Source: Escherichia coli
Lineage (GTDB): Bacteria > Pseudomonadota > Gammaproteobacteria > Enterobacterales > Enterobacteriaceae
Direction: 5' to 3' (one strand)
Assembly: GCF_003334315.1 (NCBI RefSeq)
Contig: NZ_QOWR01000062.1
Length of the DNA stretch: 27,671 nt
Both the position numbers and the translations under genes were made by a program. Position 1 is the first letter of the stretch; every line of letters starts with the position of its first letter. The notes beneath the pieces are model-generated. The model did not search any database and was not told the origin of the DNA. It was given only the letters and a program-made list of their open reading frames with translations. Below are positions 2,012 through 3,131 of the stretch, piece by piece.

Positions 2012-2584
2012 TTACCCCTGTCGAAACAGTTCACCCGTCAGGGCATCGCGGATTTCTGAAGGATTTAAACGCCCCCCCGTTTCACCAGGCACAACCGGGA
2101 ACGCCGCGCCAAATTGTGCGCGAACTTCGTCTACTGTTCGACAAGGTGGCAATCCACTCAAGTTGGCACTGGTAGAAACCAGCGGTTTACCATAAGCCTG
2201 GCACAAAGCAACCACCAACGGATGGTCGGTGACTCGTACAGCAAGCGAATCAAAGCGGCCCGTCAACCAGCGCGGTGTTGTCGCAGGCGCGGGAAAGACA
2301 AAGGTGACAGGACCTGGCCAGCGGGAAAAAATGGTTTCACGCTGCACGTCAGTCAACATGGTGTCATCAATATAGGGTTTAAGCTGCTCGTAATTTGCTG
2401 CGATTAAAATCAGCCCCTTATCAACCGGACGCTGTTTTAACTCCAACAGTCGCATCACTGCTGTTTCGCTATCAGGATCGCACCCAACACCGAAAACGGC
2501 TTCCGTTGGATAGGCGATGACACGTTCTTCATTGAGAACATCTATCGCAGCTGCGATAGCGTCTCTTTGCAGGTTATTATTCAC
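2012..2584 (-). CDS. tsaC: threonylcarbamoyl-AMP synthase (t6A tRNA modification)
   Basis: Frame of track ORF 2012..2629; start assigned to GTG at 2582-2584 giving [17 protein letters not shown]..., 190 aa (YrdC/Sua5 family). Confidence 0.9.
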
Positions 2585-2588
2585 GTTA

Positions 2589-3131
2589 TTATTCCGCCGA
2601 AACCGGCTTTCCACATTGTTTACTGGCACAAAAGTGTTTTACACCCTGCGCGGTTTTCTTTTCGATGAGTAGCGGATAATGACACTCAGGGCATTCTCCA
2701 GCTATGGGTTTGAAGTTAATGGCAAATTGACACTCCGGGTAGCGATCACAAGAGTGAAATGTTTTGCCATAACGGGAGCGGCGCTGGACCAGATGGCCCG
2801 TCCGACATTGGGGGCATGTAATTGCTGTTTCGTCCGGTTTATCGATAAGTTCGGTATGTTCGCATTCAGGGTAGTTAATGCAACCAATAAACATACCAAA
2901 GCGTCCCTGGCGTAATACCAGATTTGCGCCACATGCAGGGCAAACCTGCCCCTCCAGAACTTTGACGATATGTCCATCCGCTGAAGATTTCAGAGGACGG
3001 ACGTAGTCACACGCCGGATACTGTGAGCATCCAAGAAACGGACCGTGTTTCCCGGATCGAATAACCAGTTCAGCCCCGCACTTTGGGCAGGACTCATTAT
3101 TACGCACCGTGAACAGTGCTGATTTCGCCAT
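2589..3131 (-). CDS. yrdD: YrdD, protein with four topoisomerase-I-type C4 zinc ribbons
   Basis: 180-aa ORF; four repeats of CPxC...C..C (CPKCGAEL.., CPACGANL.., CPQCRTGH.., CPECHYPL..) visible in the translation. Confidence 0.92.

Follow-up and report, generated by a model that had tools for sequence, protein, structure and literature searches.

The window, by which we mean the whole 27,671-nucleotide stretch of E. coli DNA that was analysed, contains yrdA, yrdB, aroE, tsaC, yrdD, smg, dprA, def, fmt, rsmB, trkA, mscL, arfA, zntR and yhdN, followed by ribosomal-protein operons and gspA/gspC. Its first 11 kb found a match in all 5,426 of 5,426 complete E. coli genomes searched by BLAST and is essentially the sequence of K-12 MG1655. 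Before position 27300 there are three single-base differences between the window and the MG1655 record, at 449, 7161 and 21495. The last 372 bases (27300-27671) diverge from K-12 MG1655, and the records matched there carry an IS1A-family transposase and gspC; this corresponds to an IS1 insertion in gspC. When positions 26400-27671 were used as the query, only 25 of the 5,426 complete genomes covered at least 80% of it in one place. At the opposite end of the window, the 11-kb query matched each genome at 7 places (median), which fits a 7-copy stretch at the window start. On the minus strand, positions 1 to about 160 look like the leader/promoter part of an rRNA operon, and a promoter-like element, TTGACT-16-TAATAT, is found near the window start at 143..116 (-). 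Across the whole window, the sole Rfam hit at the gathering threshold was Alpha_RBS (RF00140, 102.7 bits) at 13608-13719 (-), the known S4-binding leader around the rpsM GTG start at 13640.

Five genes in the window, namely tsaC, yrdA, aroE, rsmB and zntR, have an in-frame ATG, GTG or TTG upstream of their annotated start and before the preceding stop codon. They are the only ones to do so among the 46 complete annotated coding sequences (11%), and thus the list of five genes given by the first-pass annotation, which proposed that each of them starts internally to its longest ORF, is complete. From the trinucleotide frequencies of the window, about 53% of genes would be expected to meet an in-frame start before a stop when read upstream; the observed share falls below this chance expectation, so such extensions are unremarkable. 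The starts annotated by RefSeq/PGAP in K-12 MG1655 correspond to window positions 405 (yrdA), 2007 (aroE), 2584 (tsaC), 6376 (rsmB) and 10299 (zntR). The coordinate pairs that had been given for the long and internal starts of yrdA (189/405), aroE (2034/2007), rsmB (6355/6376) and zntR (10347/10299) are exact, and RefSeq, orthologues, NCBIfam boundaries and PDB constructs agree that these four genes begin inside their longest ORFs. The further claim that calls made from the first ATG are over-extended holds for zntR only (ATG at 10347), because the long ORFs of yrdA, aroE and tsaC begin with GTG and that of rsmB with TTG. Likewise, automatic annotation would misplace all five starts under a naive longest-ORF rule, but PGAP already has them right. 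With a very high degree of confidence, then, the window can be regarded as an ordinary piece of E. coli chromosome in which all five genes start at the positions of the reference annotation.

For tsaC the evidence is decisive. This gene encodes the 190-aa L-threonylcarbamoyladenylate synthase type 1 (RefSeq WP_001301412.1) and runs from GTG to TAA at 2012..2584 on the minus strand. It is the tsaC gene of E. coli K-12 (yrdC/rimN, b3282; UniProt P45748), with coordinates, GTG start and 190-aa product all identical to those in RefSeq and UniProt. The GTG initiation codon at 2582..2584 (-), identified by the codon itself, by orthologues and by a published N-terminal peptide, lies 15 codons within the longest ORF, which spans 2012..2629 (-) and would encode 205 aa; a start at 2629 would therefore add 15 residues, as had been stated. 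However, no in-frame ATG is found at 2629, contrary to what had been stated: the codon at 2629..2627 is GTG, and a further in-frame GTG, absent from the first-pass annotation, is present at 2614. Not until 2455..2453 does an in-frame ATG occur; it is codon 59 when counted from the long start and encodes Met44 of TsaC. Calling the gene from its first ATG would therefore shorten it by 43 conserved residues rather than extend it.

Conservation across species singles out the internal GTG. Our sample comprised 80 tsaC loci, one per species, with 79-96% protein identity, all but one of them titled Enterobacteriaceae or MAGs of that family, and the codon aligned to residue 1 is GTG in all 80. In 20 of the 80 loci, the stretch from the preceding stop to the aligned GTG contains no in-frame start codon, which leaves this GTG as the sole possible start in those species. 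On the 3' side of the GTG, the orthologues vary mainly at third positions (AAT/AAC/AAG), as expected of coding sequence.

The protein itself provides direct evidence. Methionine at a GTG codon can originate only from initiation. The N-terminus of TsaC carries Met, not Val, at this codon, as seen in the peptide MNNNLQR, which comprises residues 1-7 of 190 and was reported by TRAINSPOTTER N-terminomics for tsaC b3282 as a dbTIS with GTG start (PMC13245402 Table S1, row 776). For the same gene, initiation is supported in that table by Ribo-RET and INRI-seq, and elongation by REPARATION. The coordinates in that row, NC_000913:3431413-3431415, convert to window positions 2582-2584 with an offset that we checked on yrdA, and the 60-nt context given there equals the window sequence. 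Protein families and structures point to the same place. NCBIfam NF007919 (TsaC type 1, Sua5/YciO/YrdC fold) gives a whole-protein score of 279.9 bits, above its curated equivalog cut-off of 175, and spans residues 29-203 of the 205-aa long ORF, and position 4 of TIGR00057 aligns to long-ORF residue 18, which places the start of that profile no more than about one residue from the GTG (residue 16). PDB entries 1HRU (188 aa) and 2MX1 (189 aa) have zero mismatches to TsaC, and 1HRU begins at the GTG-encoded residue, although such constructs show what the depositors cloned and not native N-termini. RefSeq, the 80 of 80 orthologues and the MNNNLQR peptide thus agree with the initiation site that had been proposed, and ribosomes almost certainly begin tsaC at the GTG at 2584..2582, reading it as initiator Met and producing the 190-aa enzyme.

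Judged by sequence signals alone, the start of tsaC is ambiguous. A weak Shine-Dalgarno-like GGCGGA (2593..2598, -) lies 8 nt before GTG 2584 and has a predicted anti-SD duplex of -5.0 kcal/mol, whereas GTG 2629 is preceded by AGGGTG, an anti-SD match of -6.4 kcal/mol at a long spacing of 11 nt. Because Shine-Dalgarno energy alone fails to discriminate between 2629 and 2584, we relied on the orthologues and the published N-terminomics. The surroundings of GTG 2584 are rich in A and poor in structure, folding more weakly than 194 out of 200 shuffled sequences (z = +1.66). The motif AATAATAAC, which flanks the GTG on both sides, was also considered as a possible tandem duplication. This was rejected: Citrobacter has the same length in this region and carries AATAAAAAA, so the motif arose by substitutions.

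Since GTG 2629 and GTG 2614 are in frame with no stop between, since the AGGGTG before 2629 matches the anti-SD, and since a GTG is found at -15 codons in 34 of the 80 species, tsaC might initiate doubly in Escherichia, with GTG 2584 as the main start and a minor, N-terminally extended TsaC (205 or 200 aa) made from GTG 2629 or 2614 within yrdD. The evolutionary record of the 15 upstream codons (2585..2629, -) argues against this. TGT/TGC changes, synonymous in the yrdD frame, have removed the -15 GTG from 46 of the 80 species, 22 of the 80 have an in-frame stop nearer to the tsaC GTG than -15 codons, and some carry non-triplet indels between the conserved end of yrdD and the tsaC GTG; stops or frame shifts interrupt the extension in at least 20 species. 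This stretch is thus a spurious extension: most of it is the 3' end of yrdD read in another frame, which by chance lacks a stop; the sites at 2629 and 2614 lie within an ORF that is translated in a different frame, and the 11-nt spacing at 2629 is long. Published initiation data point the same way, as Table S1 of PMC13245402 has no alternative-start row for tsaC, and tsaC has no entry in the INRI-seq supplementary file of additional TIS peaks near annotated genes, which are mostly internal or out-of-frame. We therefore regard dual initiation as very unlikely. Similarly, there is at best a slim chance that the AGGGTG before GTG 2629, which is confined to Escherichia, yields a low-abundance 205-aa TsaC with a basic tail of 15 residues. 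Initiation at GTG 2584 remains our preferred reading throughout.

Turning to the other four genes, yrdA (184 aa) occupies 405..959 (+), with an ATG start supported by a GAGG Shine-Dalgarno (-7.0 kcal/mol), RefSeq, orthologues and peptides. GAGGT is conserved in the sampled loci, and the aligned start is ATG in 76 of 76; the offset of the long E. coli start is usable in only 5 of these, and 71 have a stop nearer than that position. The N-terminal peptides MSDVLRPYR and SDVLRPYR have been reported for YrdA (PMC13245402 Table S1), again backed by Ribo-RET and INRI-seq. PDB 3TIO begins at Ser2 of the protein. The longest ORF, 189..959 (+), starts with GTG, and its 72-codon extension (189-404) is non-coding. 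This extension covers intergenic DNA on the rrn leader/promoter side and reaches the window's initial 7-copy stretch, which we take to be the rrn leader. The ORF for the 256-aa 'long YrdA' begins in intergenic DNA, just downstream of the TTGACT-16-TAATAT element described above.

The ATG of aroE (272 aa; 1189..2007, -) follows the tsaC stop after 4 nt, and its AGGGG Shine-Dalgarno (-6.7 kcal/mol) is embedded in the 3' end of tsaC. The start agrees with RefSeq and with the orthologues, in which the aligned codon is ATG in 67 of 80 loci and the ATG lies one codon upstream in the other 13; position 1 of NCBIfam NF001316 and the beginning of PDB 1NYT both fall on Met 2007. A start codon at the offset of the long E. 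coli start is found in 24 of the 80 loci, and the extension that it would open (2008-2034, from the GTG of the longest ORF, 1189..2034, -) is spurious. In the case of zntR (141 aa; 9874..10299, -), the ATG is preceded by a GGAG Shine-Dalgarno (-5.9 kcal/mol) and is supported by RefSeq, orthologues and profiles: position 1 of both NF007069 (NCBIfam) and TIGR02043 falls exactly on Met 10299, and the aligned codon is ATG in 48 of 49 loci. The longest ORF (9874..10347, -) starts with ATG, but its extension (10300-10347) overlaps the 3' end of yhdN, the long-start offset is shared by 6 of the 49 loci, and 34 of them have an in-frame stop nearer than -16 codons. The PDB entry for ZntR was set aside as start evidence, being a C-terminal fragment. 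In the loci sampled, yrdA, aroE and zntR all show conserved Shine-Dalgarno motifs. As a separate observation, codon 31 of zntR is a GTG (10207-10209, -) at which INRI-seq has an in-frame internal peak, at +90 nt (NC_000913:3439039); this is an in vitro signal only, and a product begun at Val31 would be without the N-terminal helix-turn-helix.

The remaining gene, rsmB (429 aa; 6376..7665, +), has an ATG start for which the anti-SD duplex scan found no recognisable Shine-Dalgarno. This ATG is the start given by RefSeq, it is aligned with ATG in 68 of 72 loci, and PDB 1SQF begins at Met 6376. The longest ORF (6355..7665, +) starts with TTG seven codons further upstream, an offset at which 3 of the 72 loci have a start codon, and its extension (6355-6375) lies inside a terminator-like hairpin. 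This GC-rich fmt-rsmB hairpin, GCCCGG-TCT-TGCCGGGC followed by GTTTTTAT, occupies 6347-6363 with a T-run to about 6370; the distance from its end to the rsmB ATG is 5 to 12 nt, and the spurious TTG 6355 is in its loop. Stem and T-run are present in 11 of 11 sampled Enterobacteriaceae loci, with variation in the loop, and folding of the 90-nt region is more stable than that of shuffled sequences (z = -2.1). No relevant description of a terminator between fmt and rsmB came up in a search of the literature.

The peptides published for TsaC and YrdA show the N-termini of these two proteins, whereas the published datasets searched yielded neither an N-terminal peptide nor an initiation-profiling record that bears directly on the starts of aroE, rsmB or zntR. 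The text of the Ribo-RET preprint makes no mention of these three genes, and they have zero occurrences in the TetRP supplements and in the Salmonella riboproteogenomics supplements. For these genes the INRI-seq supplements list only an out-of-frame aroE peak and the internal in-frame zntR peak. The starts of aroE, rsmB and zntR rest on conservation, profiles and constructs. Taking the four genes together, we are confident to the point of near certainty that yrdA, aroE, rsmB and zntR start at their internal ATGs and that the open stretches upstream belong to intergenic DNA or to the ends of adjacent genes. Both approaches that the first-pass annotation had named for examining the starts bear it out: the start codons aligned in 80 (tsaC), 76 (yrdA), 80 (aroE), 72 (rsmB) and 49 (zntR) loci support internal starts, and published N-terminal proteomics places peptides at the internal start for tsaC and yrdA, with support from Ribo-RET and INRI-seq.

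Over-extended forms of these proteins nevertheless circulate in databases. The commonest is the 256-aa YrdA, which is present on at least 1000 contigs and in a UniRef entry. The 205-aa TsaC, exemplified by ABV07691.1 of E. coli HS, is found on 10 contigs, and a 200-aa TsaC on one, while the 281-aa AroE, 436-aa RsmB and 157-aa ZntR each occur on 4 to 5 contigs. The presence of such sequences in public collections could be taken to mean that the longest ORFs are the true genes, with products of 205 aa for TsaC, 256 aa for YrdA, 281 aa for AroE, 436 aa for RsmB and 157 aa for ZntR. Yet the extensions lack conservation, stops or indels break them in most relatives, they fall outside all family profiles, and, except at tsaC 2629, they are without Shine-Dalgarno motifs. 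In addition, the extension of YrdA reaches from the DNA between yrdA and rrn into the 7-copy stretch, and the N-terminal peptides of TsaC and YrdA contradict the long forms, which for these two are effectively refuted. That the longest ORFs represent the genes is thus so improbable that it can be put aside in favour of the internal starts. The five starts are real, they had been read correctly apart from the slip between ATG and GTG, and they were already known from RefSeq and UniProt, with tsaC and yrdA confirmed by N-terminomics.

This is a textbook case of the over-extension errors of longest-ORF annotation, which in E. coli have been fixed by re-annotation and N-terminomics: here, too, an in-frame upstream start is not conserved, and wrong and right entries coexist. 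The practical point is that longest-ORF or first-ATG calling misplaces starts, and that the 256-aa YrdA and 205-aa TsaC in circulation can contaminate alignments. We also observed that clusters built at 90% identity are mixed, with 180-aa YrdD proteins in the TsaC cluster, TsaC fragments in the AroE cluster and 122-aa YhdN proteins in the ZntR cluster. This is probably due to fused or mis-called neighbouring ORFs that bridge adjacent genes.

The position of the tsaC GTG relative to yrdD suggests how it may be used. The TAA stop codon of yrdD, which is on the same strand (2589..2591, -), lies 4 nt upstream of the GTG. In all 79 loci in which the junction was compared, the distance from the yrdD stop to the GTG is -11, -8, -4, +1, +3 or +4 nt, so that the stop either overlaps the start (by -4 to -11 nt) or lies no more than 4 nt from it. 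GGCGGA is found upstream of the GTG in 72 of these 79 loci. Further along, tsaC and aroE are separated by a gap of 4 nt, and aroE and yrdB overlap by 4 nt. The abutting or overlapping yrdD stop, the GGCGGA and the tight spacing of tsaC, aroE and yrdB all fit translational coupling, and going by this geometry only, it is most likely that initiation at tsaC is helped by coupling to yrdD. In such a mechanism, ribosomes terminating on yrdD would restart at the tsaC GTG with the aid of the weak GGCGGA, in a region that is A-rich and poorly structured. The dprA-smg-yrdD-tsaC-aroE-yrdB order is a conserved neighbourhood recognised in the literature (PMC12506659), and the coupling would form part of this tightly packed string of genes. 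The arrangement of yrdD and tsaC resembles that of translationally coupled gene pairs whose stop and start codons overlap or abut, a likeness that in the present case is one of geometry. If coupling were strict, the invariant GTG together with the abutting or overlapping yrdD stop would tie the output of TsaC obligatorily to translation of the zinc-ribbon protein YrdD; we give little credence to so strong a dependence, which is a separate matter from the extended TsaC considered above.

Of the 46 complete genes, 5 have GTG as their start codon. Other near-cognate (GTG/TTG) starts of E. coli, including those of fmt, yrdB, rpsM and gspC in this window, are like that of tsaC in that GTG is decoded as initiator Met. 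The invariance of the tsaC GTG is not exceptional in itself, because the GTG start of fmt is equally invariant (76 of 76 loci). At yrdB (1190-1192, -), in contrast, the start codon among the same species (loci L002-L081) is GTG in 40, ATG in 38 and TTG in 1, whereas that of tsaC never changes.
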